Shown here piece after piece: positions 15,001 through 63,440 of a stretch of 64,000 nt of DNA. The position numbers and the translations under genes are program-made. How positions within the stretch are numbered: position 1 is the stretch's first letter; each line of letters starts with the position of its first letter. This DNA is from an uncultured virus (IMG/VR IMGVR_UViG_3300027798_000023). Lineage: Duplodnaviria > Heunggongvirae > Uroviricota > Caudoviricetes. Under the pieces are notes generated by a model. The model saw only the letters and a program-made list of their open reading frames with translations. It made no database searches and had not been told where the DNA came from. The stretch lies in the IMG/VR virus record IMGVR_UViG_3300027798_000023; one strand, 5' to 3'.

Positions 15001-18000
15001 GACAAAGATTCCGTACCCATCTGGAAAATCAACATCACGCCGGAGATGGCAACAGCGGTTGAAGCTGGACAAGTTCGATTCCAACCAACAGGTGCACCAA
15101 GACAAAATCTTCTGAATACCCCAAGCAGCAAAGCAGGTTACCTTGACTTGTATACTGACGACAATGGTGTTCGTGCAAGTGCTGACAAAGCCGAGAGTTC
15201 AAACTCATGGTTGCGCAAAGCCAATGAGATGTTCATTAAAACATTTGGTGCGCTTTCCGAGTCGGCGTCTAAATCGAAACTCAATCGAGATGCGCTATCA
15301 CGCACCACGGAGGAAACTATCGCCCGTCTGAGCAAGCGTCTGTCCGCAACTATTAGAGCTGAGGAAGTTGACACCCACCTTGTGCAGTTGGCATCCGGCA
15401 ATCCTGATCCGCTTATTTCTGAAGCGGTTGAGAAGGACATCATCCGTACGTATGAAGATGAAATAGCCAGTGCCACGGATCGTATTCAAGAGGAGTCTCT
15501 CTCCATCAAGGATCAGACCGAAGCCAAACAGTATATCAAAGACAACATGGCAATAGCTATTAGCGAAGCCGAACGCGCTCGTAAGATCCGCATTTGGAAA
15601 GAGCGCACGGAATCAGCTGATGCTCGTCGCAAACAACAGATGGACGCACTTGCTGAACTTGAGCGCACGTCTCCTGATACATACGAAGCTCTCATCGACA
15701 TGCGAGCATTCCTCAATGACTTGCAACAACGCGTGAAACGCTTGAACGTGGGTAACCCTGAGATTCAAGCGATCATTGACCAGTCGATGAGCGTCTATCT
15801 GGTTCGCTCTTACAGAGTCCACCAAGATCCTAAACAGGTCGATCTCATGCTCAACTCGCAAGATCCTGAGTATGCCGCACGTCGTGAAGCACTTATCAGT
15901 TTCTTTGACGCAAAAGCCAAGGACGACATTATGAAGGAGCTTGAGCGTGACCCTGATTTCTTGAAAGCATTCAAGGGTGAGTATGACTACAACAAGGTTA
16001 TTGCCAGCATGGAAGAGATTGCCAGTGAACGCTCTAGCGCACGCGCACTCCAGATGTTCAACGACTTTATGGTAGCCCACCAAAACGAGACTGGATTGTT
16101 CGGCGGCGGAAGCGACGTGACTAACGAGATCTCGCGCTACATGAAGAAAATGAACATGCCACAGCAGTTCCTTGACGCACTCATGGTCAACACTGACCCT
16201 GTGTTCAACATGGTAAACACTGGTATGTCGCTTGGTCGATTGATCGTGAACGCAAACATGCTTTCTGAAATCGCGGCATCCGGCATTGAGTCAGGCAGGT
16301 ATATCTCTGAAGCGGAGAAAGTATCAGGCATAGCCTACAAAGATGGGCATAACCTCTTACGTGAAACCTTTGCTTCGACAGGTAACGAAGAAGTCAAACA
16401 GGATGTCAGAGACAGACTCTTTACTCCACTGTATAGACAAGCTGAAGCGGCTTACACTCGTGGCGAGATTGCAAACAAACCATCTCGTGAAGAGATCGGT
16501 GCAAAACTCGATAAGGCTCTTAAAGAGTTTGGCGAAAGCAAAGAGTCACTGGCTGACTTACTTCCTGAGCTTGGGCTTAAAGCTGATCGACTTGCTACTG
16601 ACCTCTTCATCTCGTCAAGCAAACTGACAATGAAGATCAAGGACAAGATGATCCCGCTCAAGGGTCGTTATGCAAACTGGGTTCCGTTGGTCTCACCTAA
16701 CGAGGGTAACTCCGCGTATGCGCCACTTGGCGGGCTTTACGCATCCCCAGAACAAGCCGAAGCATTCCGTGCCACGTTCCACACTGGTAAAACAGCAGCA
16801 GAACACTTCGCACAGAAAGCACTTGGTGCAGTCAATAAGAAGCTCATTGGGGCGGCTGGTGTATCTCTTGGGGTTGCGACCCTCGGTAGCCCAGCATACT
16901 TTGTGCGTAACGTCTTCGGCGGCATGTTCTACGCTGGCATGAACGGAGTAAACTTCACTGATCCAAAACTGGTAGCAGCTGCGACTGACTTCATAAAAGC
17001 CACGATCATCAACACTGACCAAATCTCTCCTGAGTTCCAAGAGCTTATCGCGGGACGTATCGCGTTGGACGGCGCACAGATCGGATACCTCAAACAGCTC
17101 ATTGAGAGCATGGGTAAAGATCAGTCAGCGACGCTCGACAAGCTCAATGAGATTGCAGGTATTTCTGATGAGAAGCTCAACTCAGCGTTCAAGAAAGGTA
17201 AACGATACGGCAAGGCTGCACTTAACAAACTTCAAGCACTTGCTGAAGTAACCGAAGTGTATCCTGCGGTTATGGCATACCTCGACTTCAAAACCAAACT
17301 TGAAGAAGCTAACTTCGGCACAGAGCGTGAGATTCAACAAGAGGCAAGTCGCTTGACGAAACTCGTCATGCCATCCAAATCGGAAGCGTCAACCGCAGTG
17401 TCGGCGTTCACAGGCTCCGGACTTGGTGCGATGGTAGGTGCGTTCATCCGCTTCAAAGCAGAGGTGATTCGTAACACAGTTAATTCCGCTAAATTGGCGT
17501 ATCAATGGAGTAACTCCGACAACGAAGTTCTTCAAAAATACGGTCGTCGTAAGATGGCTGCGTTTGCCACTGTCGCGGGTCTCATCACAGTTGGCATGCC
17601 AATCATTGCACAACGGCTTATCCAAGGACTTGGGGACGACGAGGACGAAGCTATTCGTTCGTCTCTTCCTGACTACTTGCAGAACGCATCGTTGTATTAC
17701 TTTGTAGGCGAGGACGGCGTGCAGATATACAACATCTCATTCACCAACCCTTACTCGTTCGGACTTGACCCCATTTCACGTTCGCTCAACGCAATCATAT
17801 CCGGAGATCCAGAAGAGATTCCGAGTATCATAGCGCACTTCATAGCTGAAGATACGTTCGGTGAGAACATTGTAGCAGGGCGTGTAATTGACGCGAAGCG
17901 CAACATCAACACGTCAACTAACAGACCTATCTATTTCCAATCGGATAGCGGGGCTATGCAGGTGACTAAACAAGTTGGATACATTGGCGAAGCATACTTG

Positions 18001-40800: not shown

Positions 40801-40908
40801 GTTGATTGATTTGAAATAATCATAAACGCTGATTCATTGCAACACTAAAATGTATTTATTTTCGCGACAAACAAATCACGAAATAAATATCGCATGTTAG
40901 TTGATTAC

Positions 40909-40985
40909 AAAAAAACCCCTGTCCAGCAAAAACTGGACAGGGGAACATGACAATGAATAAACAAAACTCCCACTCAGGAGGTGGG
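40909..40985 (-). ncRNA. candidate small RNA 1 (about 75 nt)
   Basis: Own TTGACA-17-TAAGTA promoter (41016-40988), 5' hairpin, U-rich seed, 11-bp terminator with U7. Confidence 0.6.
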
Positions 40986-41017
40986 CATACTTACAACACG
41001 CAAGTATCGCTGTCAAT

Positions 41018-51472: not shown

Positions 51473-51811
51473 CTACTTGATTACCTCCGGTTTAACGACT
51501 TCACGATCTAATACCTCGTTGGCATCCGCGTCCATGATGATGCAAGCACTGGCTGCAACGTGAGCGATGTGCGGTTTACCACTCTCAGGGTCTAACCACT
51601 CGCCACGGTGTATCGCTGCAATGTGTCGCTTCATGGCACTTACGTAAGTCGCCATCTCGACTCCTGTAATCCTCCAGTTCCAAGCTCCGTATTTATCTGC
51701 GCCTGACTTCAACACCTGACAGATTAACTCCTCAGCGACAGGCGGCATAAGAACAAGCTGCGGCTTCACTGATCCGGCGATCTTCTTAACATCCGAAAGC
51801 TCTTCGTTCAT
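51473..51811 (-). CDS. dATP/dGTP diphosphohydrolase domain protein (DUF5664-like)
   Basis: K....L.P, GA.KYG.WNWR, A..RH, GE..DPESG.PH.AH. Confidence 0.85.
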   Translation of the reverse strand: MNEELSDVKKIAGSVKPQLVLMPPVAEELICQVLKSGADKYGAWNWRITGVEMATYVSAMKRHIAAIHRGEWLDPESGKPHIAHVAASACIIMDADANEVLDREVVKPEVIK

Positions 51812-52032
51812 GCGCCCTCCTTATCTAGCTTTTCAACTATGGCTTGGCAGATGATGTCCTTGAGCTTGCGCTTCTCGTGCTTGGCATAAGATACCAAACG
51901 GTCGTGCAAAGGTAGACCCAAGTCAACTGAGGTTCGTCCCTTACCAGTGGTGTGCTGGTCAAACGGTTTAGATGCAAATGTATTGCCTATCTTGTAACGG
52001 TTCTTATCGTCCGTCAGGTAAGTATCATTCAT
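51808..52032 (-). CDS. ribbon-helix-helix DNA-binding protein
   Basis: RTSVDLGLPLHDRLVSYAKHEKRKLKDIICQAIVEKL. Confidence 0.75.
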   Translation of the reverse strand: MNDTYLTDDKNRYKIGNTFASKPFDQHTTGKGRTSVDLGLPLHDRLVSYAKHEKRKLKDIICQAIVEKLDKEGA

Positions 52033-52145
52033 GGTGCTATTGTTGTATTTTAAAACTAACTTAAAATCAATTTGTTTTTTACGTTATTTTCTACTCCTAT
52101 TTAAATGCTTCATGGTATTAACGCTTTGGTAATGTTTGGGGATGA

Positions 52146-52241
52146 TTTGGGTCTTTGGGTCTTTGGGTCTTTGGGTCTTTGGGTCTTTGGGTCTTTGGGT
52201 CTTTGGGTCTTTGGGTCTTTGGGTCTTTGGGTCTTTGGGTC
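52146..52241. repeat. 12 x 8-bp tandem repeat TTTGGGTC
   Basis: Perfect copies, non-coding. Confidence 0.97.
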
Positions 52242-52485
52242 TTTATGGAAAATGGCGAAAATTTTTTGTATGGGGGCATATATGTATCTACATCGCCCAC
52301 AAAAACCGACCACCCCGTAGCAGCGTCTCCGGCGTTTGTGCGGGTCATGTGCGCCGCTTGGCTGGGGGTTTCCGGTTTTGCCTAGGTTTTGAACAGTAAA
52401 AGGTGCGCCGTCTGCAGGTTTCAGCGATTGATCCGGCTTCTCGAATGTCCGCAATCCCTTATTGCATAAAGGTTTGAGGGTCTCA

Positions 52486-52513
52486 ACTTGTTACAATATG
52501 CATAATGTCAAAT
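52486..52513 (+). other. dif-like (XerC/XerD) recombination site
   Basis: ACTTGTTACAA-TATGCA-TAATGTCAAAT, 11-6-11; right arm has 2 mismatches to TTATGTTAAAT. Confidence 0.65.
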
Positions 52514-52609
52514 CCGCTTAGTCTAGGTTAAGAAACTTAGGCAAGGCTAAGTTTTGAATCATTAGTAAGTTGAGCGGTTTACTAAGGATTGAGGTGGCAA
52601 TCTCTCTTG

Positions 52610-52814
52610 AGGTGCTCCGGCTTAGGTGCTCCGGCTTAGGTGCTCCGGCTTAGGTGCTCCGGCTTAGGTGCTCCGGCTTAGGTGCTCCGGCTTAGGTGCT
52701 CCGGCTTAGGTGCTCCGGTGCTGGAGGTGCTCCGGTGCTGGAGGTGCTCCGGTGCTGGAGGTGCTCCGGTGCTGGAGGTGCTCCGGCTTAGGTGCTCCGG
52801 CTTAGGTGCTCCGG
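52610..52814. repeat. compound tandem array, 14 copies of core AGGTGCTCCGG
   Basis: 7 x 14-bp (core+CTT), 4 x 17-bp (core+TGCTGG), 2 x 14-bp, final bare core. Confidence 0.97.
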
Positions 52815-53474
52815 TCAGATCATGGCGTCGAGTAATGCTTCCAACTTTCCAACCCGCTTTTCAAGTTCAGCAATCACGCCGGACAATTCCCGCCAACTCA
52901 TCCGCTTTTCCAAGGTCTCGCACCTATCCGGAAATTGCACGTTGAGTTTCTCCCGCAGGCTAACCACTTGCGCCGAGTTTTCACGCATGGCGCAAACCAA
53001 ATTCCGAAAAAGCCCCGCTTGCGCCTTGCCAACGTCGCCTTGCCATTTCAGCCACCGCGCCGCTTGCGTATCAGTCAAAGCCCCAGTAAAGCCGGAGGCA
53101 AAATAAACAAGCGCATCTTCCCGCGTATCCAAAGGAAGAGGCGCGACAAAGACAGCACGAGGTGCACAAAAATCGCTTGCTACGTAAACCGAGACCTCTC
53201 CCAAGTTTTTAAACTCCAAGACCTCGCAAGAAATCCTGCGCTGTAATCCGGCAAAGGTGATACGATCCTCTCCATTGACCCTTGCACGCATGCCAAGCCA
53301 ATGCCAAGCCCCCGCCGCGTTTTGGAATACCACCGGAACGCGCCCACTTGTGACCTCTGCAGAATCACGCCATACCACAAGCGACGCGGTGAGACTTGCG
53401 GTCTCACTCAATACCCCGTTGCTAAAGACCAACTTTTCTTTTCTCGTCTCCCTGCCATTGAAATTTGAATGCAT
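52815..53474 (-). CDS. hypothetical protein (219 aa), divergent from the early operon
   Basis: Long ORF with upstream TTGACA at 53503-53508; stop abuts the repeat array. Confidence 0.6.
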   Translation of the reverse strand: MHSNFNGRETRKEKLVFSNGVLSETASLTASLVVWRDSAEVTSGRVPVVFQNAAGAWHWLGMRARVNGEDRITFAGLQRRISCEVLEFKNLGEVSVYVASDFCAPRAVFVAPLPLDTREDALVYFASGFTGALTDTQAARWLKWQGDVGKAQAGLFRNLVCAMRENSAQVVSLREKLNVQFPDRCETLEKRMSWRELSGVIAELEKRVGKLEALLDAMI

Positions 53475-53700
53475 GCCAAACGCTCCGCTTTTCTTTTCTT
53501 TCTGTCAATTTATTATATGTCACCCGTAGAAATAAAAAAAGAAAACAAAGTTAAAATAAACTTGTTTTTGTTTTTTAATTTATAGTGAAACCCCCGCCTT
53601 TCCCCCTCAATCAGAAAAAAAAATGCACCTTGCAACCCTTTATTCCTTAAGGGTTTGCGGCTTTAAACTAATTTTTTCGCATTTATTTAATAAAAAGGTG

Positions 53701-53729
53701 TTGACCGGCATTATTTCATGCTGTAAAAC
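53701..53729 (+). promoter_or_regulatory. early promoter with AT-rich upstream region
   Basis: TTGACC-17-TAAAAC with TG extension; A/T tracts at 53490-53700. Confidence 0.55.
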
Positions 53730-53740
53730 CTCTTCAGCGT

Positions 53741-53926
53741 ATGAATAAAGCAACTAACAAAACAGCAGTGAAAAAAGCAGTAAGAAAACCCATAACAATC
53801 TGGAAAGTGTCCGGCTATGAAGGCAGACTTGAACATTATTTCGGACACAAAAAAGAAGCAGAACGCTTTGTAAAAACCCACGATTTGAAAGAAGCGACTA
53901 TCGCTCCATTTCTCAGCGAATACTAA
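53741..53926 (+). CDS. first early gene, hypothetical
   Basis: ATG 11 bp after the -10 box. Confidence 0.65.
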   Translation: MNKATNKTAVKKAVRKPITIWKVSGYEGRLEHYFGHKKEAERFVKTHDLKEATIAPFLSEY

Positions 53927-53985
53927 ATAATACTTCGAGGTTCAATCCCTCCAACTTCAACCCCACAACCCCACAACCCCAGACC

Positions 53986-54195
53986 ATGAAAACACTTCTC
54001 GAAAACCTCGCCAACCACAACGTCCTTATTCTGTCATCCCATGCCAACGTCCAAGGGAATTTAATCGCCCCAACTTTGCCCGCCCAACCTTGGAGCGTTC
54101 AACTTGGTACGCCGTCGTCAAATGCCGTTATCTGGTTTCAGCCCGAAGACGTCGCCAAAATTGAAAAAGATTCGATTATCAGCTTGAATTTCTAA
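53986..54195 (+). CDS. early hypothetical protein
   Basis: Leader repeat before ATG. Confidence 0.7.
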   Translation: MKTLLENLANHNVLILSSHANVQGNLIAPTLPAQPWSVQLGTPSSNAVIWFQPEDVAKIEKDSIISLNF

Positions 54196-54214
54196 CACCC
54201 CACAACCCCAGACC

Positions 54215-54610
54215 ATGAAAACAAAACGCCAACCCACAGCCGCACAGCGCGAAGCCGCCAAAGCACGCCGCGCCACTATGTCAACCCTAGCCGCTAGGGT
54301 CTCCGCCATGTCCGACGCCGAACGCGCCGCACTTGTCCCGCTTGGCATTGCCACGATCCAAGGGCGCACCCTCAGCATGCACAATTCCGCGTTAATCATT
54401 ATGCAACGCTCGACGGCGTCAATCGTTGGAGGTTTTGCCCAATGGCGCGAAGCCGGACGCGCGGTGCGTAAAGGTGAGAAAGCTCTTTCTTGCTGGTATC
54501 CATGCCAGACCAAGACCACCGACGCCGCAACCGGAAACCCGGAAACCCGCCCAGGCTTTCGCCTTGGTAGCGTGTTCGACATTTCCCAGACCGACGCAAT
54601 CCCGCTTTAA
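54215..54610 (+). CDS. ArdC-like N-terminal ssDNA-binding domain protein
   Basis: S..N..L...Q....VGGFAQW...GR.VRKGEKA...VFDISQT. Confidence 0.85.
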   Translation: MKTKRQPTAAQREAAKARRATMSTLAARVSAMSDAERAALVPLGIATIQGRTLSMHNSALIIMQRSTASIVGGFAQWREAGRAVRKGEKALSCWYPCQTKTTDAATGNPETRPGFRLGSVFDISQTDAIPL

Positions 54611-54632
54611 TCTCACCCCACAACCCCAGACC

Positions 54633-54878
54633 ATGACAACCACCTCACAACCCTGCAGCCGCGTATCCGTGCGCGAAATCATTTCAACGCCCAATTGGAC
54701 AGGCTTAACGCTTGCCCAGCTTGTGGACGCCGGACGCATTGACCCTACCGACGCGCCAACAATCACCCAATGGGTGAAAGCCACGCTTGGAGACCCTCGC
54801 ACCCTCGACGAGTTGCACAACCAACGCGCACTTGCCCAAGAAGTCATTTCAACCCTCACCCCACAACCCCACGCATGA
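54633..54878 (+). CDS. early hypothetical protein
   Basis: Leader repeat before ATG 54633. Confidence 0.65.
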   Translation: MTTTSQPCSRVSVREIISTPNWTGLTLAQLVDAGRIDPTDAPTITQWVKATLGDPRTLDELHNQRALAQEVISTLTPQPHA

Positions 54879-55051
54879 GACCCTATAACGAATATCTTGA
54901 AGCCGTCACCGCTTACATCCGGAAACACGGCGAAACCAACGAGACCATAGACCGCCTCGAAACCATGCTTCCCCCCGCTTGGTTTGCCGAGCTTGTCACC
55001 GAAGCCACCGAAGCCCTTAACCTCGAAACCCTCAGCACCTCCAACCCATGA
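54875..55051 (+). CDS. early hypothetical protein
   Basis: ATGA overlap; leader motif inside the previous gene end. Confidence 0.65.
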   Translation: MRPYNEYLEAVTAYIRKHGETNETIDRLETMLPPAWFAELVTEATEALNLETLSTSNP

Positions 55052-55167
55052 GAATCATTAAACCAATCCTTGGAACAATCGCCGCAATCGCGCTTATCGT
55101 CGCGCCTGCGTATTATGAAAACAAAATCGTGCCCATCATTGAGGCATTCATCCGCGCCCATTTCTAA
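55048..55167 (+). CDS. 39-aa membrane peptide
   Basis: MRIIKPILGTIAAIALIVAPAYYENKIVPIIEAFIRAHF; ATGA overlap. Confidence 0.55.
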   Translation: MRIIKPILGTIAAIALIVAPAYYENKIVPIIEAFIRAHF

Positions 55168-55198
55168 CCAACACCCCAACACCCCAACACCCCAAACC

Positions 55199-55456
55199 AT
55201 GAACAGCAAGACCCATTACACCGTCACCGTTGGAAATATCGGGACAGTTTACGAAGGAACATCCGGCAGAAAAGCCGCAGAGTGTTTTGACGAATACCGC
55301 GCCCAATCGCAAGACAACTACGGACGCGCCGCAGGTGAACCCGTCACGATATGGAAAGACGGCGAACCTTGGAGAGAACACGCCGGAGCAGATTTAGAAA
55401 CTTATGATTTTTATGGAGTAAATACCACCAACTCATTCAACACCTCGAAACCATAA
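55199..55456 (+). CDS. early hypothetical protein (VGNIGTVY..GRA.GE.V family)
   Basis: Leader repeat before ATG. Confidence 0.7.
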   Translation: MNSKTHYTVTVGNIGTVYEGTSGRKAAECFDEYRAQSQDNYGRAAGEPVTIWKDGEPWREHAGADLETYDFYGVNTTNSFNTSKP

Positions 55457-55493
55457 CCAACCAACACCCCACAACACCCCAACACCCCAAACC

Positions 55494-55706
55494 ATGACAA
55501 CCAAACAACCAAAGCCGTTTCAACAATCCGATAGCGAAACCAGCAAAAACGCAATCATTGCAAACTTTATCGCATGGAAAACCCACGGAGATTCCGGAGC
55601 GCGTGACAGATTCCGGTCTGCTTTGATGGGACGACTTGTAAAACGATTTGGAACGCGTCGAATCCGCCGCTTTTCCGACATCGTCGCCAAACTCTCCACC
55701 AAATAA
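55494..55706 (+). CDS. early basic hypothetical protein
   Basis: Leader repeat before ATG. Confidence 0.6.
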   Translation: MTTKQPKPFQQSDSETSKNAIIANFIAWKTHGDSGARDRFRSALMGRLVKRFGTRRIRRFSDIVAKLSTK

Positions 55707-55761
55707 CCAACACCCCAACACCCCAACACCCCAACACCCCAACACCCCAACACCCCAAACC

Positions 55762-56226
55762 ATGACAACCAAACCAACACCAAAGAAACTGACCAAAGCC
55801 GCCGCTCTCATCGCCGCGTCCGTAGACTATAAAAAATATGCACGCTCTGAAAAATACGCATGCGAACCGCTACGCATTGCCGAACGCTTAACGGAGTTTT
55901 GCAAAGCCACCGCCGAGGGGCGCATGTTTTGCATCATCCACAGCGTTTCCAGTTCCGGCATGACTCGCAACATGTCTTTTTATGAAACCGCCAAACTAAA
56001 CCACCCAATGATTGACGGGCGGAAATACTGCCAGCTAAATTTTTGGAGCTTATTTAAAGCCCTCGGATACCGTGAAGCAAAAGGTGACGGCTTCGCAATC
56101 GGCGGATGCGGGATGGATATGGTTTTCGCTACCCATTACAACATCATCCACAGCGCGGCGCGTTTTGGCATTATCACTAAAGAGCAATGCGCCAAGCTCT
56201 CACAAATGACCCCGCCTCATTTCTAA
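55762..56226 (+). CDS. early hypothetical protein (VSSSGM.R / GCGMDM.F family)
   Basis: Leader repeat; conserved-looking motifs. Confidence 0.75.
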   Translation: MTTKPTPKKLTKAAALIAASVDYKKYARSEKYACEPLRIAERLTEFCKATAEGRMFCIIHSVSSSGMTRNMSFYETAKLNHPMIDGRKYCQLNFWSLFKALGYREAKGDGFAIGGCGMDMVFATHYNIIHSAARFGIITKEQCAKLSQMTPPHF

Positions 56227-56238
56227 CCCACCCACAAA

Positions 56239-56295
56239 CCGCCTGACGAGTTCCCAGCTTACGGAACGAAACGCCGCACGGCGTCGCGGATAAGC
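56239..56295 (+). ncRNA. type I hammerhead ribozyme
   Basis: CCGC-CUGACGA-GUUCC[CAGCUUAC]GGAAC-GAAA-CGCC[GCAC]GGCG-UC-GCGG-AUAAGC; complete core; predicted cleavage after C56285. Confidence 0.93.
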
Positions 56296-56310
56296 AAACC
56301 ACCCGCAAAC

Positions 56311-56679
56311 ATGACAACCAACACCCCACAACCCCAGACCATGACAACCACCCCAACACCGGAGACCTTAGAAGAACTCTACAACCACCCCGACTTTCAA
56401 CCCTTCGGGAGCACCTCAGACGACTGGCTAAACGACGGCGAACGCATGGAGCGTTGCCAAGAAGCCGCCGAGCATGGCGCGGATGGGTCAACCCATTATG
56501 AAGTCATCCAAGACTGGCGGGATTTTCTCTCCAACCTATTCAGAGACCTGCGACGCCATGCCGAGACCGACGAGGAAGAGGCGAACATTGAACAACTTGA
56601 AAGCCAAATCTCCGGAGAGATTGACGCCTGCGAAGCCCACCACGAACAAGCCGGAACTTTACACGCAAGCCGTGCATAG
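56311..56679 (+). CDS. early acidic hypothetical protein
   Basis: Two in-frame starts (56311, 56341) from a duplicated leader. Confidence 0.7.
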   Translation: MTTNTPQPQTMTTTPTPETLEELYNHPDFQPFGSTSDDWLNDGERMERCQEAAEHGADGSTHYEVIQDWRDFLSNLFRDLRRHAETDEEEANIEQLESQISGEIDACEAHHEQAGTLHASRA

Positions 56680-56708
56680 ACCAACCAACCACCCCACAAC
56701 CCGCAAAC

Positions 56709-57176
56709 ATGACAACCACCCCACAACCCCAGACCATGACAACCACCCCACAACCCGCAAACATGACAACCACCCGCGCCCGCACCGTGCCCGTGCTATC
56801 TTATGAAAACCCTACCGCCGGAAGCGTGAAAGCCACCCGCAAGGAACTTCACAGGCTAGGCGTCACAGATGCCGAGATTGACGCCGGAGAGAAGCGTTTT
56901 GACATAGAAACACGCGGCGCATGGGGCGTATGCAGCAAACTACGCGCAGTTGTTAAAACCGGAGAGTTTGGAGAATATAGCCGCATGCTTTGGAGTCAAT
57001 TCTATTCAATGCGAACCATGAGCAAGCCAAACCAAACCGGAACTTGCATCGAGGGATACGTCAGTATCAGAGGGAAAAAATCCACCTGCTTCACCTCGTC
57101 CCAGTTGTTTGAATTACCCTGCGGCAAACTCGTAGACGTCGCGGTGATATTCTCACGTTCAAAGATCAAACGATAA
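56709..57176 (+). CDS. early hypothetical protein
   Basis: Three in-frame starts from a triplicated 27-bp leader unit. Confidence 0.7.
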   Translation: MTTTPQPQTMTTTPQPANMTTTRARTVPVLSYENPTAGSVKATRKELHRLGVTDAEIDAGEKRFDIETRGAWGVCSKLRAVVKTGEFGEYSRMLWSQFYSMRTMSKPNQTGTCIEGYVSIRGKKSTCFTSSQLFELPCGKLVDVAVIFSRSKIKR

Positions 57177-57226
57177 ACCAACCAACCAACCAACCAACCA
57201 ACCAACCAACCAACCACCCCAAAAAC

Positions 57227-58000
57227 ATGTATTCCGAAACCTTAGAACTAACTCGCGGCTATGTCGCGACCATTGCCAACGACGACAGCCCCGAAAATCC
57301 TTTCGACGCGTGGGACTGCCAACCTCCGATTGCCGTCCTCAACTGGGAACGCTACCACGCAAAACTGGAGAACTACAAAGGCGACGAACTAACCTTGCAC
57401 AATCTCCTTTCATACATCCCGACCGAGAAATGGACAAGCCGCGCAGGAAAGCGCGAGATTCTTGCCGCCCTACCTTTCCCGATGGAGGAAATCCGCGAAG
57501 AAATGCGCTGGGGAACATACAGCCCTTGCTTTAAAGACGCCATTGACTCGCTAGTCTATTCCCTTGCGCCTTCCGACTGGTCTGAATGGATTGAATACTT
57601 CGACGCCATGCAAGCCCTTGCCGCCATTGCCGGAATCCCTTGCCACCTCACCCAATCCAATGGATACAGCCAAGGAGACAGCGCGTTGGTCTTTACTGCC
57701 GCCCTTCCCGAATGGGTTGAGAGCATGAAGATTGACGCCGAACGCGCCAAGGGGATTTGTGAATCCGCCGCCGACCTGTGGAGCGCGTGGGCGTGGGGCG
57801 ACGTTTACGGAGTTTCCGAAATCATTTCACCCGATGGCGAGGAGGTTGACGACGCATCTTGCTGGGGATTCTACGGAGACCACAAGACAAGCGGACTGAT
57901 GGAGCATTGCGAGAGCGCGATAAACCATCATATCAAATACCTAGCCAAGGAGGCACAGGAATCGCACGCCGCCGCCTGCATGGACATAGCCACCGTATAA
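57227..58000 (+). CDS. early hypothetical protein (W..GDVYG / SCWGFYG family)
   Basis: (AACC)n leader; motifs recurrent in phage early proteins. Confidence 0.75.
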   Translation: MYSETLELTRGYVATIANDDSPENPFDAWDCQPPIAVLNWERYHAKLENYKGDELTLHNLLSYIPTEKWTSRAGKREILAALPFPMEEIREEMRWGTYSPCFKDAIDSLVYSLAPSDWSEWIEYFDAMQALAAIAGIPCHLTQSNGYSQGDSALVFTAALPEWVESMKIDAERAKGICESAADLWSAWAWGDVYGVSEIISPDGEEVDDASCWGFYGDHKTSGLMEHCESAINHHIKYLAKEAQESHAAACMDIATV

Positions 58001-58030
58001 CGGACGCGCAATCCGCCCGCCATTGAATCA

Positions 58031-58059
58031 CCTCACCGGAAAGATCCGGTGGGGTTTTT
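58031..58059 (+). terminator. intrinsic terminator in early region
   Basis: CCTCACCGGA-AAGA-TCCGGTGGGG-TTTTT. Confidence 0.85.
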
Positions 58060-58096
58060 GGGGCAAAAGGCAACGCCTTGAAACTACCAACCAACC

Positions 58097-58288
58097 ATGA
58101 CAACCAACACCCCACAACCCGTAAGCCTCCAACATATAGCGTTACTCGAAAGCACCATTGATACCGTTGCTTGTGAACTGCTCGATCATTTAACTCCCGA
58201 AACTGCTTCTTTGTGGGCAGCATTCAGCGATGCGATGCAAGCAGACCTTAAAGCAAAATTCGGAGACGACGTATTTTTAAACTTCTAA
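58097..58288 (+). CDS. hypothetical protein
   Basis: MTTNTPQP leader-derived N-terminus. Confidence 0.6.
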   Translation: MTTNTPQPVSLQHIALLESTIDTVACELLDHLTPETASLWAAFSDAMQADLKAKFGDDVFLNF

Positions 58289-58292
58289 TACC

Positions 58293-59018
58293 ATGAAAAC
58301 CAACCGACCAACCATGACAACCAACACCCCACAACCCGCAAACATGACAACCATCGAAACATATTGCCCCGTATTCACCGGATTCTATAACACCATCTGG
58401 GATGAATCAGATAATGTTATGCAATACGAATTGGACGACGAAGAAAATTTCCGAGAGAACTACCCAGAGCTTGCCATTGTCCCGTGGGAGTTCATTACAG
58501 ACAACGCATTGGACACGGTAGACTACCAAGCCGGAAGCCAAAGCGTTGCCGAACACGTCGCGGGAAACTTCGCATCATTCATTAAAAAGACCTTACAGAA
58601 AAAGTATTCCGACATGGTAAGCGATTCCCGTTACCAGAAACTTGTATCGCCACGGGAATACAATTTCAGAAACGACGCGATTGACATTCAGATTGATATA
58701 AACCTTGACCTATTGAGGGAATACCTATCCGAGAATCACGATGAGTTTGAAGACTATCTTTCACGCACTTATACATCGCGGAGCGGGTTTGCCTCGCACT
58801 ACCCTAACGACGTCGAGAGTTGGCGCGAAGATACCGAGAACTTCACCGAGCTTGACGGGCACTACCTAGGCTCAATCCTGCAGTTCATCGCGGAGAATGA
58901 AGACAGCGACTGCGAGCTTTCATTCTACCATCATTGCAACACCTTTGAGGAATACATGAACGCCGCATACATCCAAGGCGACAAACTGCTGCAAAAATGG
59001 ACGGATGCAAACGAGTAA
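58293..59018 (+). CDS. acidic hypothetical protein (F.GFY / SPREYNF..D family)
   Basis: Three in-frame starts; very acidic. Confidence 0.75.
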   Translation: MKTNRPTMTTNTPQPANMTTIETYCPVFTGFYNTIWDESDNVMQYELDDEENFRENYPELAIVPWEFITDNALDTVDYQAGSQSVAEHVAGNFASFIKKTLQKKYSDMVSDSRYQKLVSPREYNFRNDAIDIQIDINLDLLREYLSENHDEFEDYLSRTYTSRSGFASHYPNDVESWREDTENFTELDGHYLGSILQFIAENEDSDCELSFYHHCNTFEEYMNAAYIQGDKLLQKWTDANE

Positions 59019-59070
59019 TCCGCCCGCCGACATACACCCTTACCTGTAACCAACAAACCAATAGAATAAC

Positions 59071-59337
59071 ATGACTATAAAAGAACTAATCAAACATTTG
59101 GAAACGTATAAGCCCGACGAGATCATTGCCTACGACCTATGGTCGGTCGATGACGTGATGGAGGAGGGCAACCACCATGATGACTATCCTGAAGTAACTC
59201 AGGAACAAGCAGAGGAAGTCCTGCTCCGCATGGGTCATAACAAGGACTGCAACGTCGGATTAAATTGGGACTACATGAACTACCACTTGGACAACGTCAT
59301 GTATGAAGCCGAACAGAAAGGAGGAAACGATGAGTGA
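59071..59337 (+). CDS. hypothetical protein
   Basis: MTIKELI..L; EQAEEVL...D...G.NWD. Confidence 0.7.
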   Translation: MTIKELIKHLETYKPDEIIAYDLWSVDDVMEEGNHHDDYPEVTQEQAEEVLLRMGHNKDCNVGLNWDYMNYHLDNVMYEAEQKGGNDE

Positions 59338-59551
59338 CTTACCCCTCATAGAGATTGACATCCGCTGGGACGATGGCGAGGAAGTTTACGGCTTACTTGT
59401 CAGTCAATACGATGGCATTGACGAGGACAACGACGACGCCATTTTCTTCTACGGATTATCGTGGCAGGAAGCCCAAGACTGCGTCAAAGCCAAGACAAGT
59501 CTGCTAGGCTCTGAGTTTACTATCCTTGCCGCCAGATTGATTGAACCATGA
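59330..59551 (+). CDS. hypothetical protein (DD.IFFYG motif)
   Basis: AAGGAGG before ATG 59330. Confidence 0.7.
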   Translation: MSDLPLIEIDIRWDDGEEVYGLLVSQYDGIDEDNDDAIFFYGLSWQEAQDCVKAKTSLLGSEFTILAARLIEP

Positions 59552-59760
59552 ACCCTGCAACCATGAGTATAAACGAAACAATCGAACGATTCCGTCAAAC
59601 CGCCCTGCGTAGTCTTGACGCTGTCAAACATTGCGACATGAAACCCCATGAGAAAGAAGTGGATACCCGCCTTCGCAACACCATCCCAGCCGACTGGTCG
59701 GTGCAGGATATGAGCATCATCATCAATACCGACAAACGTATCAATCACCCCAAACCATAA
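59548..59760 (+). CDS. hypothetical protein
   Basis: ATGA overlap. Confidence 0.55.
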   Translation: MNPATMSINETIERFRQTALRSLDAVKHCDMKPHEKEVDTRLRNTIPADWSVQDMSIIINTDKRINHPKP

Positions 59761-59773
59761 ACAAAAATACAAT

Positions 59774-59941
59774 ATGAACACCGATATGCAAACCAACCGA
59801 AACCAAGGGCAACCTATGAGTAAGAACAAACGCCGCCGGAAAATACTAAAGACCATCGTTTTTATTATCGACAATCTCAGCATCGGATTCTTGTGGGCAG
59901 CCGCATTGACCATGCTTGCCTACGCAATCCTAAGCCACTAA
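59774..59941 (+). CDS. small membrane protein
   Basis: Manual translation; basic stretch followed by a hydrophobic helix. Confidence 0.5.
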   Translation: MNTDMQTNRNQGQPMSKNKRRRKILKTIVFIIDNLSIGFLWAAALTMLAYAILSH

Positions 59942-59960
59942 CCAACCAACCAACATTACC

Positions 59961-60116
59961 ATGAAAAACTACGAGGCAATCGCCAAAACCAAGACAGGAG
60001 AGTCTGTCTCCATCGCCACTTGCGAAGCTCAATCCATCGAGGAAGCTCGTCGCATTTTGTCCACCTTCCTCTGGGCTACTGACTGCCAAGATGCGCAAGT
60101 CCGCGAGGTATCCTAA
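59961..60116 (+). CDS. 51-aa hypothetical protein
   Basis: (AACC)n leader; MKNYEAIAK...EA.SIEEAR. Confidence 0.6.
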   Translation: MKNYEAIAKTKTGESVSIATCEAQSIEEARRILSTFLWATDCQDAQVREVS

Positions 60117-60135
60117 TATCAAAACCAACATTACC

Positions 60136-60327
60136 ATGAAAATAAACGCACCACTTATTGTATTCGGGAGTGACCCGACCACCACCTATCCACTTCTTAT
60201 GGCAATCGCCCAGAGGCGCATAAGAGAGGAACGCAGGGCTGAACTTGTCCGCAAAGCAAAGGACGCGATAACCGCCCCTTGCAGACTTGCAAAGAATGTG
60301 ATTGCCAAGATCACTTTTTACCTGTAA
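60136..60327 (+). CDS. hypothetical protein
   Basis: Leader AACCAACATTACC-ATG identical to that at 59961. Confidence 0.55.
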   Translation: MKINAPLIVFGSDPTTTYPLLMAIAQRRIREERRAELVRKAKDAITAPCRLAKNVIAKITFYL

Positions 60328-60352
60328 ATAGGTATTGAACACCCGAACACCA

Positions 60353-60568
60353 ATGACTACTACCGAAACCGCCATCAAGCGAATAGCCGATGAGTTGCGT
60401 ATGCTGATAGCTACCGACAACGACGCACCCCGTCACATCGAGGAATACATACAAGACCTTTACCCTAATAACGCGTCCGTTAAAGACATGGAGGAACGCA
60501 TAGAAGAGTTAGAGGAAAAACTAGCCGACGCCCTTTGGGATATTGAACACCTCGCAGACAACACATGA
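60353..60568 (+). CDS. small coiled-coil protein
   Basis: A/C-rich leader. Confidence 0.6.
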   Translation: MTTTETAIKRIADELRMLIATDNDAPRHIEEYIQDLYPNNASVKDMEERIEELEEKLADALWDIEHLADNT

Positions 60569-60645
60569 AGACCCTATACGGCTACTTGATGCTGATAATC
60601 CCCGTATTCGTTTCAATTCTTTACATCTACTTATCCATCAGATGA
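60565..60645 (+). CDS. 26-aa hydrophobic peptide
   Basis: MKTLYGYLMLIIPVFVSILYIYLSIR; ATGA overlaps on both sides. Confidence 0.45.
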   Translation: MKTLYGYLMLIIPVFVSILYIYLSIR

Positions 60646-60986
60646 CTAAGATTGAGTTTGCGATTGAGATGCTTACAAAAATACGCATCTGGGAACAAGC
60701 CGAAGACAAGCGAGTGAGGGATGAAGGTAAAAGATTGAGAAATCGAAACGCCTTCATCCCCACCGAGCTTCAGATCCTGTTTACATTGGCGACAGTAGAC
60801 CCATCCGGCATCCACCCGAAGGACATAACCATCGGACGCCTTGGGTCATTCAGAACGACCAGAGAAACCCTACCCTTTGATCGCCTTGAGGAGCTTGGCT
60901 ACATACGCAAACAACGCTTTGGAAAAATATACAGATACTTCATTACCGATATGGGAATGAGATTCGTAAACACCGTAATAAGATGA
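60642..60986 (+). CDS. winged-helix (MarR-like) protein
   Basis: TELQILF.L...RLEELGYI.K......Y.IT..G. Confidence 0.65.
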   Translation: MTKIEFAIEMLTKIRIWEQAEDKRVRDEGKRLRNRNAFIPTELQILFTLATVDPSGIHPKDITIGRLGSFRTTRETLPFDRLEELGYIRKQRFGKIYRYFITDMGMRFVNTVIR

Positions 60987-61357
60987 TAGAACTATACAAA
61001 AACAACCGCAAAGACAGTGGACTATCCTTCCGCCGTGGAGAGTTCTCAGTCAGATACAAAGAGGATGGCAAACAAGTGTATGTCAGACTCAACACCACCG
61101 ACAGAAACCTCGCCAGAAGAATGCGAGATCAGATATATGTCGAGCTAATCAAAGAGGGTGCTACTACACCCGAACGAAACAAAGGTCGTCCGGTGATCTT
61201 ACCAAAAGGAATGACCGAGGAGATGCTTCCCGAATGGGTGTATTACCGGAAGCCTTGGCAGGCAAGGGTCAATAGCAAAATCATCGGCAACTACCATACC
61301 ATCGAGGAGGCTACATCCGCCCGTAACGAATACCTTAAAAACAAACCCATTAAATGA
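60983..61357 (+). CDS. AP2-like DNA-binding protein
   Basis: WQARV...IGNY.TIEEA..ARN; second beta3-alpha module at the N-terminus. Confidence 0.6.
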   Translation: MIELYKNNRKDSGLSFRRGEFSVRYKEDGKQVYVRLNTTDRNLARRMRDQIYVELIKEGATTPERNKGRPVILPKGMTEEMLPEWVYYRKPWQARVNSKIIGNYHTIEEATSARNEYLKNKPIK

Positions 61358-61986
61358 GAAACGTAAACTGCCCTAGAACAAAAGTGTTTGTGCGGTGCGA
61401 TGCCTTTGGCGGTTCAGCCGAATGCTATGAACCCGCGTGGCTTATATCCGTGCGAGCCATGCGCGGTCGTCCGTTTTGTTTTCAAGTATGGGTTGATAAA
61501 TACGCCGCTTGCTTCGACAAGATCCCACCGCATTGCATCTATTGGTTTGAACCAAGCGGCAAAGAAAAGCCATTGCCTCTTCATATCGTGCAGATGTGGG
61601 AGTGCCTATCTGGATCAATCGAGGTATGGCGGAAAGACCAACTCAGCAATGCCCCTGTGCTGATAAACCTTGGCAACGGGATGAAGCCAATGAACGGGCA
61701 CTACTGGTTTACTATTGACTTTATACCGGAAGGGCAGGCGCACGGCATCTTTGACGTTGGCGAGGCGGAGCTACTTGAAGAACACAAGGAAGGTAACGTA
61801 ATCAAGCTCTCTAACGGACAGATCGTTATTTATCCGAATAACAGGTTAAAGTGGTTACCGCCGTCACTTACAAATGACAACGCCGCCGCCATGATTCCGG
61901 ACTGGGAGGTTGCATCCAACAGCCAATGGGACAAATGGGGATGTGACTCCGGCGAAACCCTTGGAGATTCAAAGTGGGCATACTAA
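61354..61986 (+). CDS. conserved phage protein of unknown function
   Basis: 210 aa; Q.WEC.S, Y.FTID, EHK, NGQ...YPNNR. Confidence 0.75.
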   Translation: MRNVNCPRTKVFVRCDAFGGSAECYEPAWLISVRAMRGRPFCFQVWVDKYAACFDKIPPHCIYWFEPSGKEKPLPLHIVQMWECLSGSIEVWRKDQLSNAPVLINLGNGMKPMNGHYWFTIDFIPEGQAHGIFDVGEAELLEEHKEGNVIKLSNGQIVIYPNNRLKWLPPSLTNDNAAAMIPDWEVASNSQWDKWGCDSGETLGDSKWAY

Positions 61987-62010
61987 GCATACGATTAAAC
62001 ACAAAAAATA

Positions 62011-62304
62011 ATGAAAACCAATACACCTGAAACAGAACAACAAGATCAATACAACGACATCTTTGATGAAGATATGATTACAATGGATGGCTACGACGAC
62101 TGCATCGTCGGGGTAGTCGAACAGTTTGGTCGCCCGCCCATCGCTTGCTACGACAAAGATAAAGTTCTAGCAAAACTGGACAAGGACGGGATGACCTACG
62201 ACGAAGCACTTGAGTTCTGGGAGTTTAACCAGATCGGAGCTTGGCTTGGAGAAAGCACGCCATGCTTCTTAACCTTTATCAATTTAAACAACGACCATGA
62301 ATAA
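62011..62304 (+). CDS. conserved phage protein (DG.D.CI.G / EA.E..FN..GA..G..TP)
   Basis: Recognisable widespread small phage family. Confidence 0.75.
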   Translation: MKTNTPETEQQDQYNDIFDEDMITMDGYDDCIVGVVEQFGRPPIACYDKDKVLAKLDKDGMTYDEALEFWEFNQIGAWLGESTPCFLTFINLNNDHE

Positions 62305-62605
62305 ATTTTACCCCATTTGGATATGTTTACCTTGCGGAAATCGACACGGACACAAGCGATGTGGCGTAGCAACGTGGCATGAAAACACCTGCGACATCTG
62401 TGCAGAAGTAACTATGGTCACCGAGCCGAGGGACTTTGGTCACCTTAAAGATACTTGGCTGCAGGCATACGCTCAGCGAACAGCAATCAACGCTTACATA
62501 AACGATGTGCCAGCGAATGCAGAAACACCCACAGATAGTCCCAATTTAAATACGATAACACATGAACAAGAAAGAACGAATCGAAAAATGGACAGCCAAG
62601 ATTGA
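62297..62605 (+). CDS. Zn-finger-like protein
   Basis: C..CG...ATWH...C..C.....TEPRDFG. Confidence 0.7.
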   Translation: MNKFYPIWICLPCGNRHGHKRCGVATWHENTCDICAEVTMVTEPRDFGHLKDTWLQAYAQRTAINAYINDVPANAETPTDSPNLNTITHEQERTNRKMDSQD

Positions 62606-62909
62606 TAAGATCGTAGGCGCGTATAAGAAACTAAGCGCAGCTTGCGATGAATCGCACAAGGCTGGTTGCTTGGATGTAGACGGAAAACTATTCACGGCAA
62701 TATGGGTATCATTTGATACGCTTATGGATCACATCGACCAACAAGAATGGTTGGAGTGGTATATCTACGACAACGATTGCGGGGCAGAAAAGATGAGGGC
62801 AGGCTTTGGTGACGTGGTGAATCCGATTAAGAACAGCCGTGACCTAGCCAAGTTGATTGTAGAGGACGAGGATCAGGATGACCAACAAACCATATCACAT
62901 GACCGATAA
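62562..62909 (+). CDS. hypothetical protein (WL.WYIY.ND.G motif)
   Basis: Operon packing. Confidence 0.7.
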   Translation: MNKKERIEKWTAKIDKIVGAYKKLSAACDESHKAGCLDVDGKLFTAIWVSFDTLMDHIDQQEWLEWYIYDNDCGAEKMRAGFGDVVNPIKNSRDLAKLIVEDEDQDDQQTISHDR

Positions 62910-62912
62910 ATT

Positions 62913-63440
62913 ATGAACGAAAGACACATGAAAATCATGGTTCCATACGAGGAGCCTATGGACACCTGCCCAGATTGCAGCGACATCCCTTGTGATTGTG
63001 GGCTGCCTGCTGGGTATCAATCCGATATACGCTTTGCAGCAAACTTTGCACCGCATATTAAAGTTGTGGAAGCAAGTAAAGTTGCAGAGATAATTCAGCA
63101 GCGAGACGATTTGTTACGATACAACGAAGCATTTCGACAAGAAGCGTTGATCTGCGCTAATTGCGATGCGATCAGTAAAGAGGAATATGATCGAGCGATA
63201 GAGCAGCGGGACGGATTACGATCAGCAGTCGATTACGCAAGCGATCAACTAATCAGAATCACCGAGCAGTTGGACAGGCTGGTCGAGGCACTTGAACACA
63301 CCATGAAACACATGAGGCATAGTCTCAACTGCCCAGCTAGAATTTCAGAGGAACTCCATGCGTGTAATTGCCAAATGGAATGGGCGTATGATAACGCAAC
63401 CGAAGCACTCCAATCCCTAAACCAACCAACACAATGGTAA
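62913..63440 (+). CDS. mosaic coiled-coil protein, EQRD/TEALQSLNQ family
   Basis: Shares 28-bp and 17-bp identical blocks with ORF 177. Confidence 0.7.
   Translation: MNERHMKIMVPYEEPMDTCPDCSDIPCDCGLPAGYQSDIRFAANFAPHIKVVEASKVAEIIQQRDDLLRYNEAFRQEALICANCDAISKEEYDRAIEQRDGLRSAVDYASDQLIRITEQLDRLVEALEHTMKHMRHSLNCPARISEELHACNCQMEWAYDNATEALQSLNQPTQW

Follow-up and report, generated by a model that had tools for sequence, protein, structure and literature searches.

The DNA analysed here is a 64,000-nucleotide (nt) stretch, hereafter the window, from the uncultured virus IMGVR_UViG_3300027798_000023 of the IMG/VR database (Caudoviricetes), in which a hammerhead ribozyme motif lies at positions 56239–56295. 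The motif sits inside a dense plus-strand array of small open reading frames (ORFs; 53741–63440) that includes an ArdC-N-like protein, and it occupies most of an 84-nt non-coding spacer (56227–56310) between two co-directional ORFs, within which the downstream ORF has no in-frame start codon. Read from the order of its elements, the motif has its ends open in stem I and its stems II and III closed by loops, the type I topology, and descriptors for type II and type III hammerheads gave no match in the window. All core positions are canonical, including the A15.1–U16.1 pair and C17, and all stems are intact (Table 1). The first-pass annotation of this DNA had proposed a complete type I hammerhead with a GUC cleavage triplet and a predicted cut site after 56285, 25 nt ahead of the ATG at 56311. 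Both proposals hold: sequence reading and the comparisons given below (descriptor, covariance models, covariation) find every element where it had been placed, and the coordinates of triplet, predicted cut and start codon read exactly. The minimum free energy (MFE) structure of the isolated 57-mer is a three-way hammerhead junction, at −17.9 kcal/mol and 58% of the predicted ensemble. Cleavage by a hammerhead leaves a 2′,3′-cyclic phosphate, here on C56285, and a 5′-OH, here on G56286.

Table 1. Parts of the hammerhead ribozyme and features around it, in window coordinates.
Feature	Position	Strand	Remarks
Stem I 5′ strand, CCGC (positions 2.x)	56239–56242	+	pairs with 56286–56289; directly before C3
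Catalytic core CUGACGA (C3 U4 G5 A6 C7 G8 A9)	56243–56249	+	matches RF00163 and R2 consensus
Stem II, GUUCC/GGAAC	56250–56254 / 56263–56267	+	G10.1–C11.1 closing pair; present in every MFE fold
Loop II, CAGCUUAC, 8 nt	56255–56262	+	
Core G12 A13 A14	56268–56270	+	part of GAAA 56268–56271
Stem III, CGCC/GGCG plus A15.1–U16.1 (A56271–U56284)	56271–56284	+	loop GCAC
Stem III strands, CGCC and GGCG	56272–56275 and 56280–56283	+	
Cleavage triplet GUC	56283–56285	+	C17 = C56285
Predicted scissile bond, 3′ of C17	56285/56286	+	from hammerhead consensus
Stem I 3′ strand, GCGG (positions 1.x)	56286–56289	+	also 5′ arm of the alternative post-cleavage hairpin
3′ tail UAAGC	56291–56295	+	exact complement of loop II GCUUA 56257–56261
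Second copy of stem I 5′ strand, CCGC	56303–56306	+	13 nt past GCGG, 4 nt ahead of ATG
Upstream gene, phrog_12365, conserved phage protein without known function	55762–56226	+	stop 12 nt before ribozyme
First downstream ORF, 122 amino acids, no family	56311–56679	+	leader starts at predicted cut site
Second downstream ORF, 155 amino acids, no family	56709–57176	+	
AT-rich divergent spacer	53475–53740	.	likely promoter region of the plus-strand array
Terminator-like hairpin UCACCGG-AAAGAU-CCGGUGG	58033–58059	+	plausible transcription unit end

We scanned both strands of the window with a descriptor demanding a stem I of at least 4 base pairs (bp), a stem II of at least 4, a stem III of at least 3 plus the A–U pair, and the canonical core. 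It matched once, at the 56239 site, while none of 300 first-order Markov simulations of the window yielded a match. Two covariance models, both built with the window excluded, recovered the same site: R1, made from nine hammerheads of the GCCA type in viral contigs L001 and L003–L005, scored it at 36.4 bits (E 2.4e-7 in 206,787 nt), and R2, made from 76 matches at E ≤ 0.01 in a search of 100 of the 129 family loci described below, returned it as the sole match in the whole 64-kb window, at 60.7 bits (E 4.4e-13). The motif is not a chance match. No second hammerhead was found on either strand of the window by R1, R2, Rfam or the descriptors for types I, II and III, nor any other Rfam ribozyme at E ≤ 5. 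Under competition within the hammerhead clan, the best hit for the window was RF00163 and not RF03152 (RAGATH-1 hammerhead, gathering threshold 56.3 bits); the latter reaches 19–21 bits on the GCCA-type hammerheads of L001 and L003. Two other assignments of the stem III hairpin were discarded, namely a minus-strand match to CRISPR-DR33 (15.4 bits, E 1.8), which is this hairpin read backwards, and a terminator, for which there is no U tract.

The stem I and core pattern of the window recurs at no fewer than 129 loci in IMG/VR (126 distinct sequences), and the ribozyme is one of an extensive family of type I hammerheads from phages in which stem I, (C)CGC/GCG(G), is short. Family counts given below are drawn from the matches listed in this pattern scan, of which 94 of the 126 distinct ones could be parsed, the others having no 30-nt tail or failing the stem criteria; L002 and L006, from a first pattern scan, were kept out of the alignments (19.5 bits, no convincing stem III). 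Among the parsed members stem I is 4 bp long in 34 and 5 bp in 48, and stems II and III vary. The dimensions seen in the window, with a 4-bp stem I, a 5-bp stem II and an 8-nt loop II, are common in the family, and L147, a hammerhead from another viral contig, has an identical stem III. Alignment A6, comprising 73 distinct members, has 99.6% of its cells in standard pairs, with both-side changes in 9 of 13 pairs (170 such cells) and covariation in four of the five modelled pairs of stem II; these values were reached by 0 of 500 shuffles, save for the count of pairs changed on both sides, which one shuffle in 500 attained. A smaller alignment of 11 sequences gave 95.7% paired cells and both-side changes in six pairs, with 0 of 500 shuffles as high. 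There is also a sister group of 48 loci with a GCCA/UGGC stem I and the same architecture, from which the window differs on both sides in three of the four stem I pairs. At the level of aligned sequences, covariation thus supports all three stems. Contigs of relatives at ~92–95% identity, from three runs, span the site, and among the differences listed only loop II indels fall inside the motif.

Four viral contigs (L001, L003, L004 and L005) carry two to four hammerheads each inside 1–2.5 kb. Two of these copies are degenerate: that at L005 2330–2386 is decayed, keeping its core and stem I and having lost the stem III/GAAA region (15.5 bits), and that at L001 3740–3808 has a U–U at 10.1/11.1. 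Both adjoin intact copies.

A further proposal of the first-pass annotation, pseudoknot pairing of loop II with the 3′ tail, is borne out by the exact 5-bp complementarity of GCUUA and UAAGC together with a family-wide excess over permuted partners. For each of the 94 parsed members we took the longest Watson–Crick run that loop II can form with the 12 nt directly past stem I. Its mean was 3.47, whereas permuting the partners gave 2.74 on average and never more than 2.99 in 200 permutations, and runs of at least 4 bp occurred in 44.7% of the family against 18.6% on permutation. The pairings also change in concert from member to member, as in GGAUA/UAUCC and UUGGCU/AGCCAA. As judged by these comparisons, pseudoknot potential is enriched across the family.

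Beyond the ribozyme itself, the 5′ strand of stem I occurs a second time between the predicted cut and the ATG. In the predicted 3′ product, taken as 56286–56340, the GCGG at 56286–89 pairs with this CCGC at 56303–06, which places a hairpin at the extreme 5′ end; the product folds at −5.5 kcal/mol (z −3.75), and 0 of 200 shuffles did as well. The arrangement extends through the family. Past the cut, 81 of 93 parsed members start with GCGG, and a copy sought at positions 8–34 was found as CCGC in 61 of those 81, against 8–12 for three other orderings of the same letters. In the UGGC hammerheads the accompanying copy is GCCA: 41 of the 49 have it, whereas no other arrangement of these letters exceeds 12. 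The second copy therefore changes with stem I. As a control, windows 80 nt downstream were found to contain the 4-mer in 17 cases of 92, and windows 80 nt upstream in 18 of 94. Most of the family's hairpins have a loop of 4–5 nt (4 nt in 22 of 63) and overlap the pseudoknot tail. The window, with its 13-nt loop, resembles 23 members in which the loop is at least 8 nt long and hairpin and tail are separate; loops of 12–13 nt occur in nine members. Within this long-loop class (n = 23), a pseudoknot of at least 4 bp is seen in 8, against a permuted mean of 3.3, a value reached by 1 of 500 permutations. Because GCGG is also the 3′ strand of stem I, the hairpin can form only at the expense of stem I. 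We infer that it represents a post-cleavage exchange, in which the upstream fragment would be released and the new 5′-OH end capped; a 5′ hairpin of this kind, recurring family-wide, would add a concrete mechanism to the downstream stabilisation suggested in the first-pass annotation.

The placement of the ribozyme relative to genes is likewise that of its relatives. Across 140 related phage hammerheads with enough flanking sequence, the cut is followed by a same-strand ORF start after a median of 30 nt, and in 99 of the 140 that start comes within 40 nt, as compared with 43 of 140 on the antisense strand; the 25 nt of the window is typical. The flanking ORFs had no meaningful match in Pfam or PHROGs at E ≤ 1, and the first downstream ORF (56311–56679) has no relatives in viral contigs. 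The upstream gene is listed from a TTG at 55648. Its ATG at 55762 is the likelier start, because the alignment with viral contig L039 shows a stop at 55704–06, an A/C-repeat leader and a conserved ATGACAAC.

As for transcription, visual inspection of the AT-rich divergent spacer found TTGACC (53701–53706) and, after 17 nt, TAAAAC (53724–53729), a pair that the promoter scan does not list. At the other end, the terminator-like hairpin lies directly 3′ of ORF 57227–58000 and is followed by GGUUUUU; the consensus scan does not list it either. The promoter and terminator scan of 52000–60500 gave counts at chance level, with nothing listed beside the ribozyme on the plus strand. Spacer and hairpin bracket a plausible 4.3-kb unit with no listed terminator in between, and together with the ArdC-N-like gene they make it reasonable to regard the array as one ‘early’ transcript. 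Nearly all spacers of the array (53927–60000, plus strand) are leaders composed of A and C only, with no Shine–Dalgarno motif (for example 55707–55761, 56680–56708, 57177–57226 and 59942–59960). Short repeat units, (CACCCCAA)n and (ACCA/CCAA)n among them, often make up these leaders, and many ORFs of the array open with ATGACAACC. Repeat number varies in close relatives, with indels at 55713–55725 and a 32-nt skip at 55706–55739.

We compared the locus with relatives of the upstream gene, which were found at 19 viral loci, 80 in metagenomes and 7 in genomes, duplicates included. Three of these homologues have a hammerhead directly after them, those of L056, L065 and L038 (the phage of the window itself), and the genes downstream of the three hammerheads are unrelated to each other; in L118, a hammerhead lies 1.6 kb downstream of the homologue. 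The closest diverged relative is L039 (70% amino acid identity), in which a 33-nt A/C-rich spacer separates the upstream gene from a homologue of the window's ORF 57227–58000. DNA homology between the window and L039 takes in just the first two bases of the ribozyme, ending at 56240, and restarts at 57280; the ribozyme and the two ORFs therefore form an insertion of ~1 kb whose left edge is the ribozyme. Similar junctions appear among L001, L003, L004 and L005, where hammerhead edges coincide with the limits of several homology blocks and one homology island, 63 nt long, consists of the hammerhead alone. This mosaic pattern suggests cassette-wise exchange of genes and agrees with the passages of Perreault et al. 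(2011; PMC3088659) in which genes flanked by hammerheads ‘are not constant’. In one case, L001 apparently joins the upstream side of one L003 hammerhead to the downstream side of the next and is thus without the ~330-nt cassette found between those L003 hammerheads.

The source of the window is an uncultured freshwater phage, and the best DNA match to the stretch is a freshwater metagenome. Encoded in the window are replication genes (primase/DUF5906, DUF2800, an Enc34-type SSB, PolA and SNF2) and an M15 peptidase. Searches against isolated phages returned no DNA similarity match, and the DNA polymerase shares no more than ~30% identity with that of any isolate, so that no named relative or host can be given. 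Relatives of the upstream gene in metagenome-assembled genomes (MAGs; L118–L124) carry the labels Bacteroidota, Flavobacterium, Flavobacteriaceae and Ignavibacteriae, along with Actinomycetota, Gammaproteobacteria and Culicoidibacterales; binning of phage contigs being unreliable, these labels are a weak hint at a Bacteroidota-like host. Shine–Dalgarno motifs are rare ahead of genes throughout the window, a scarcity with which such a host would agree. Elsewhere in the window, a single plus-strand ORF of 5156 amino acids spans 3091–18561, and a minus-strand ORF (51473–51811) contains PF18909 (dATP/dGTP diphosphohydrolase N-terminal domain, E 1.5e-24), a family that occurs in phages modifying their DNA bases. 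On the minus strand between late-gene ORFs, 40908–40987 gave three overlapping Rfam small RNA matches (rli38, anti-hemB and NsiR1) at 23–31 bits, all far under gathering, and is probably a hairpin or terminator. No transfer RNA or transfer-messenger RNA genes were found in the window.

Taken together, we judge it likely that the window holds a genuine type I hammerhead of a pseudoknotted family that acts by cleavage followed by an exchange into a 5′ hairpin. In such a mechanism, the ribozyme would be transcribed as part of a plus-strand message running through the dense small-gene array, its three-way junction would fold, the UAAGC tail would dock onto loop II, and the RNA would cut itself after C56285. 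The upstream message would then end 59 nt past its stop codon, in a 2′,3′-cyclic phosphate and with the stem II and stem III hairpins 3′-terminal, and the downstream message would start with a 5′-OH at G56286, 25 nt before the AUG, carrying 56311–56679, 56709–57176 and sequence up to ~58.05 kb. Freed from stem I, GCGG would re-pair with CCGC at 56303–56306 in a small 5′-terminal hairpin, which may release the upstream fragment and disfavour re-ligation, and which, with the 5′-OH, may shield the new end from 5′-end-dependent decay. The net effect would be a defined, context-independent 5′ end for the inserted gene pair. We infer transcription as a single unit, cleavage in vivo, refolding and an effect on stability or expression, and cleavage may in this way stabilise or uncouple the downstream genes, as had been suggested at the outset.

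Several results weigh against this account. Rfam's hammerhead models, to which the first-pass annotation had looked for confirmation, reported nothing in the window at their gathering thresholds: RF00163 (Hammerhead_1) reached 23.3 bits on a 351-nt segment, under its gathering value of 34 (E 0.002), so that standard annotation misses the site, and it was absent at E ≤ 5 when the whole window was searched. Of the window's GCUUA/UAAGC pairing, only the central G–C/C–G lies in the register of the family, the pairing extending from there in the opposite direction, and in a ~95% relative (run X2) loop II is remodelled by indels at 56256–56259. When the 86-nt context is folded with the pseudoknot left out, the MFE structure (−18.5 kcal/mol) pairs GCGG with the downstream CCGC, and the hairpin could accordingly compete with the active fold before cleavage in this energy model. 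At the level of the locus, a hammerhead directly follows the upstream-gene homologue at 3 of 106 loci (L038, L056 and L065), a count on which we rejected the ribozyme as a conserved partner of that gene; L039 has no ribozyme at the locus, and the ribozyme is dispensable there. Finally, among the listed runs containing the stretch, none is recorded as RNA. No result contradicts the reading of the first-pass annotation, and the RF00163 shortfall is a matter of that one model, the features that define the ribozyme class being unaffected.

The main rival to a post-cleavage exchange is a regulated switch acting before cleavage, in which the downstream CCGC would compete for GCGG, and the fraction of transcripts cut would set the ratio of coupled to uncoupled messages or tune translation of ORF 56311; the balance of hairpin and stem I, or the binding of a ribosome or protein near the AUG, would be the setting factor. 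The 86-nt fold just described favours such competition, the copy is transcribed just 13 nt past GCGG and long before cleavage, the 3′ arm of the hairpin ends 4 nt before the AUG, and the copy is conserved across the family. However, the energy model behind that fold takes no account of the 5-bp pseudoknot, a contact that favours the active structure; most family hairpins, with their 4–5-nt loops, overlap the pseudoknot tail, and a simple before-and-after exchange fits equally well; and no ligand- or protein-binding feature was seen. We regard the switch as improbable. The homology breaks raise a different question, namely whether the ~60-nt ribozyme is kept as a cassette boundary or recombination linker, travelling with cassette exchange or mediating it, with cleavage secondary and the CCGC…CCGC repeat a footprint. 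In line with this, L039 homology ends at 56240 and restarts at 57280, homology blocks of L001, L003, L004 and L005 are bounded by hammerheads (the 63-nt island included), and a single conserved gene is followed by a hammerhead in three lineages that are unrelated and differ in their downstream genes. A pure DNA role, however, would not keep the core together with covariation in all three stems and in the pseudoknot, and the second copy lies at a hairpin-like spacing (4-nt loop in 22 of 63) and tracks stem I as an RNA partner would. We therefore consider a linker role unlikely as the whole explanation; the two roles are compatible and not exclusive. The family might consist of natural ‘ribozyme insulators’ that travel with gene cassettes, with ribozyme, tail and second copy forming one module in which the post-cut hairpin makes the cut irreversible and caps the 5′-OH, a possibility that we advance tentatively and rate at somewhat less than an even chance.

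Two remaining explanations fare worse. That the site is an inactive relic, or a look-alike arisen by chance and having no present function, would fit its score under the Rfam gathering threshold, its absence from L039 and the occurrence of decayed copies in related contigs (L005 2330–2386; L001 3740–3808, with its U–U at 10.1/11.1). Set against these are a canonical core and intact stems, the absence of the motif from all 300 simulations, the 60.7 bits under R2, and the confinement of changes inside the motif, among those listed for the ~92–95% relatives from three runs, to loop II indels, and we hold a relic to be very unlikely. An RNA circularisation or splicing device needing two ribozymes, an idea raised for clustered hammerheads in Perreault et al. 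(PMC3088659), would demand a partner, whereas R1, R2, Rfam and the type I, II and III descriptors find one hammerhead in the window and no other Rfam ribozyme appears at E ≤ 5. Such products reportedly went undetected in that study, and we give this device hardly any credence.

The conserved second stem I copy offers a cheap and concrete hypothesis for what these ribozymes may do for the downstream message, namely product release and a capped 5′ end. The window is a useful natural test case, because the tail (56291–95) and the hairpin arm (56303–06) do not overlap and are separately mutable. A ribozyme at the edge of an insertion, together with mosaic junctions at hammerheads, suggests that these RNAs mark exchange units of small early genes, and if the insulator interpretation is true, a newly inserted gene (here 56311–57176) would be expressed behind an identical leader at any landing site. 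Since the Rfam threshold misses the site, and family members score in the window's range under the GCCA-type model R1, phage annotation may under-count such ribozymes.

The ribozyme itself is ordinary, as hammerheads ahead of phage genes have been known since 2011. In the passages of Perreault et al. (PMC3088659), phage and prophage hammerheads flank single genes, tandem copies cleave in vitro and in E. coli, and pseudoknots are found in all three hammerhead types and are needed for fast cleavage at 0.5 mM Mg2+. Like the ribozyme of the window, the type I phage hammerheads described there (RF00163, clan CL00010) have three stems, with stem I open, around a canonical core, pair loop II with the 3′ tail in a pseudoknot that takes the place of loop–loop contacts, and lie between co-directional genes, just before a gene and amid variable neighbours. 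In contrast to the clusters of that study, there is a single copy in the 64-kb window. The window also adds the second CCGC copy; a second stem I copy was not found in the searched passages of the paper or in a full-text search, which is no proof of novelty. The HHphage hammerhead of haloviruses HF1 and HF2, as presented in the same passages, lies 13 nt ahead of an early gene and has a mapped 5′ end no more than 3 nt from the cut, whereas the cut in the window is predicted from the sequence; HHphage also has an archaeal host and an atypical core with insertions (2a, 2b), unlike the canonical core seen here. By analogy, the nearest functional counterpart is RiboJ, given in the passages of PMC7536230 as ‘a hammerhead ribozyme and a 23 nt hairpin’, with uncleaved messenger RNA (mRNA) modelled as decaying faster. 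Both place a hammerhead and a hairpin ahead of a gene in an arrangement that would give the mRNA a standard 5′ end whatever lies upstream, but RiboJ is synthetic and carries a separate, added hairpin, whereas the hairpin predicted in the window re-uses the 3′ strand of stem I together with a second copy of its partner strand.

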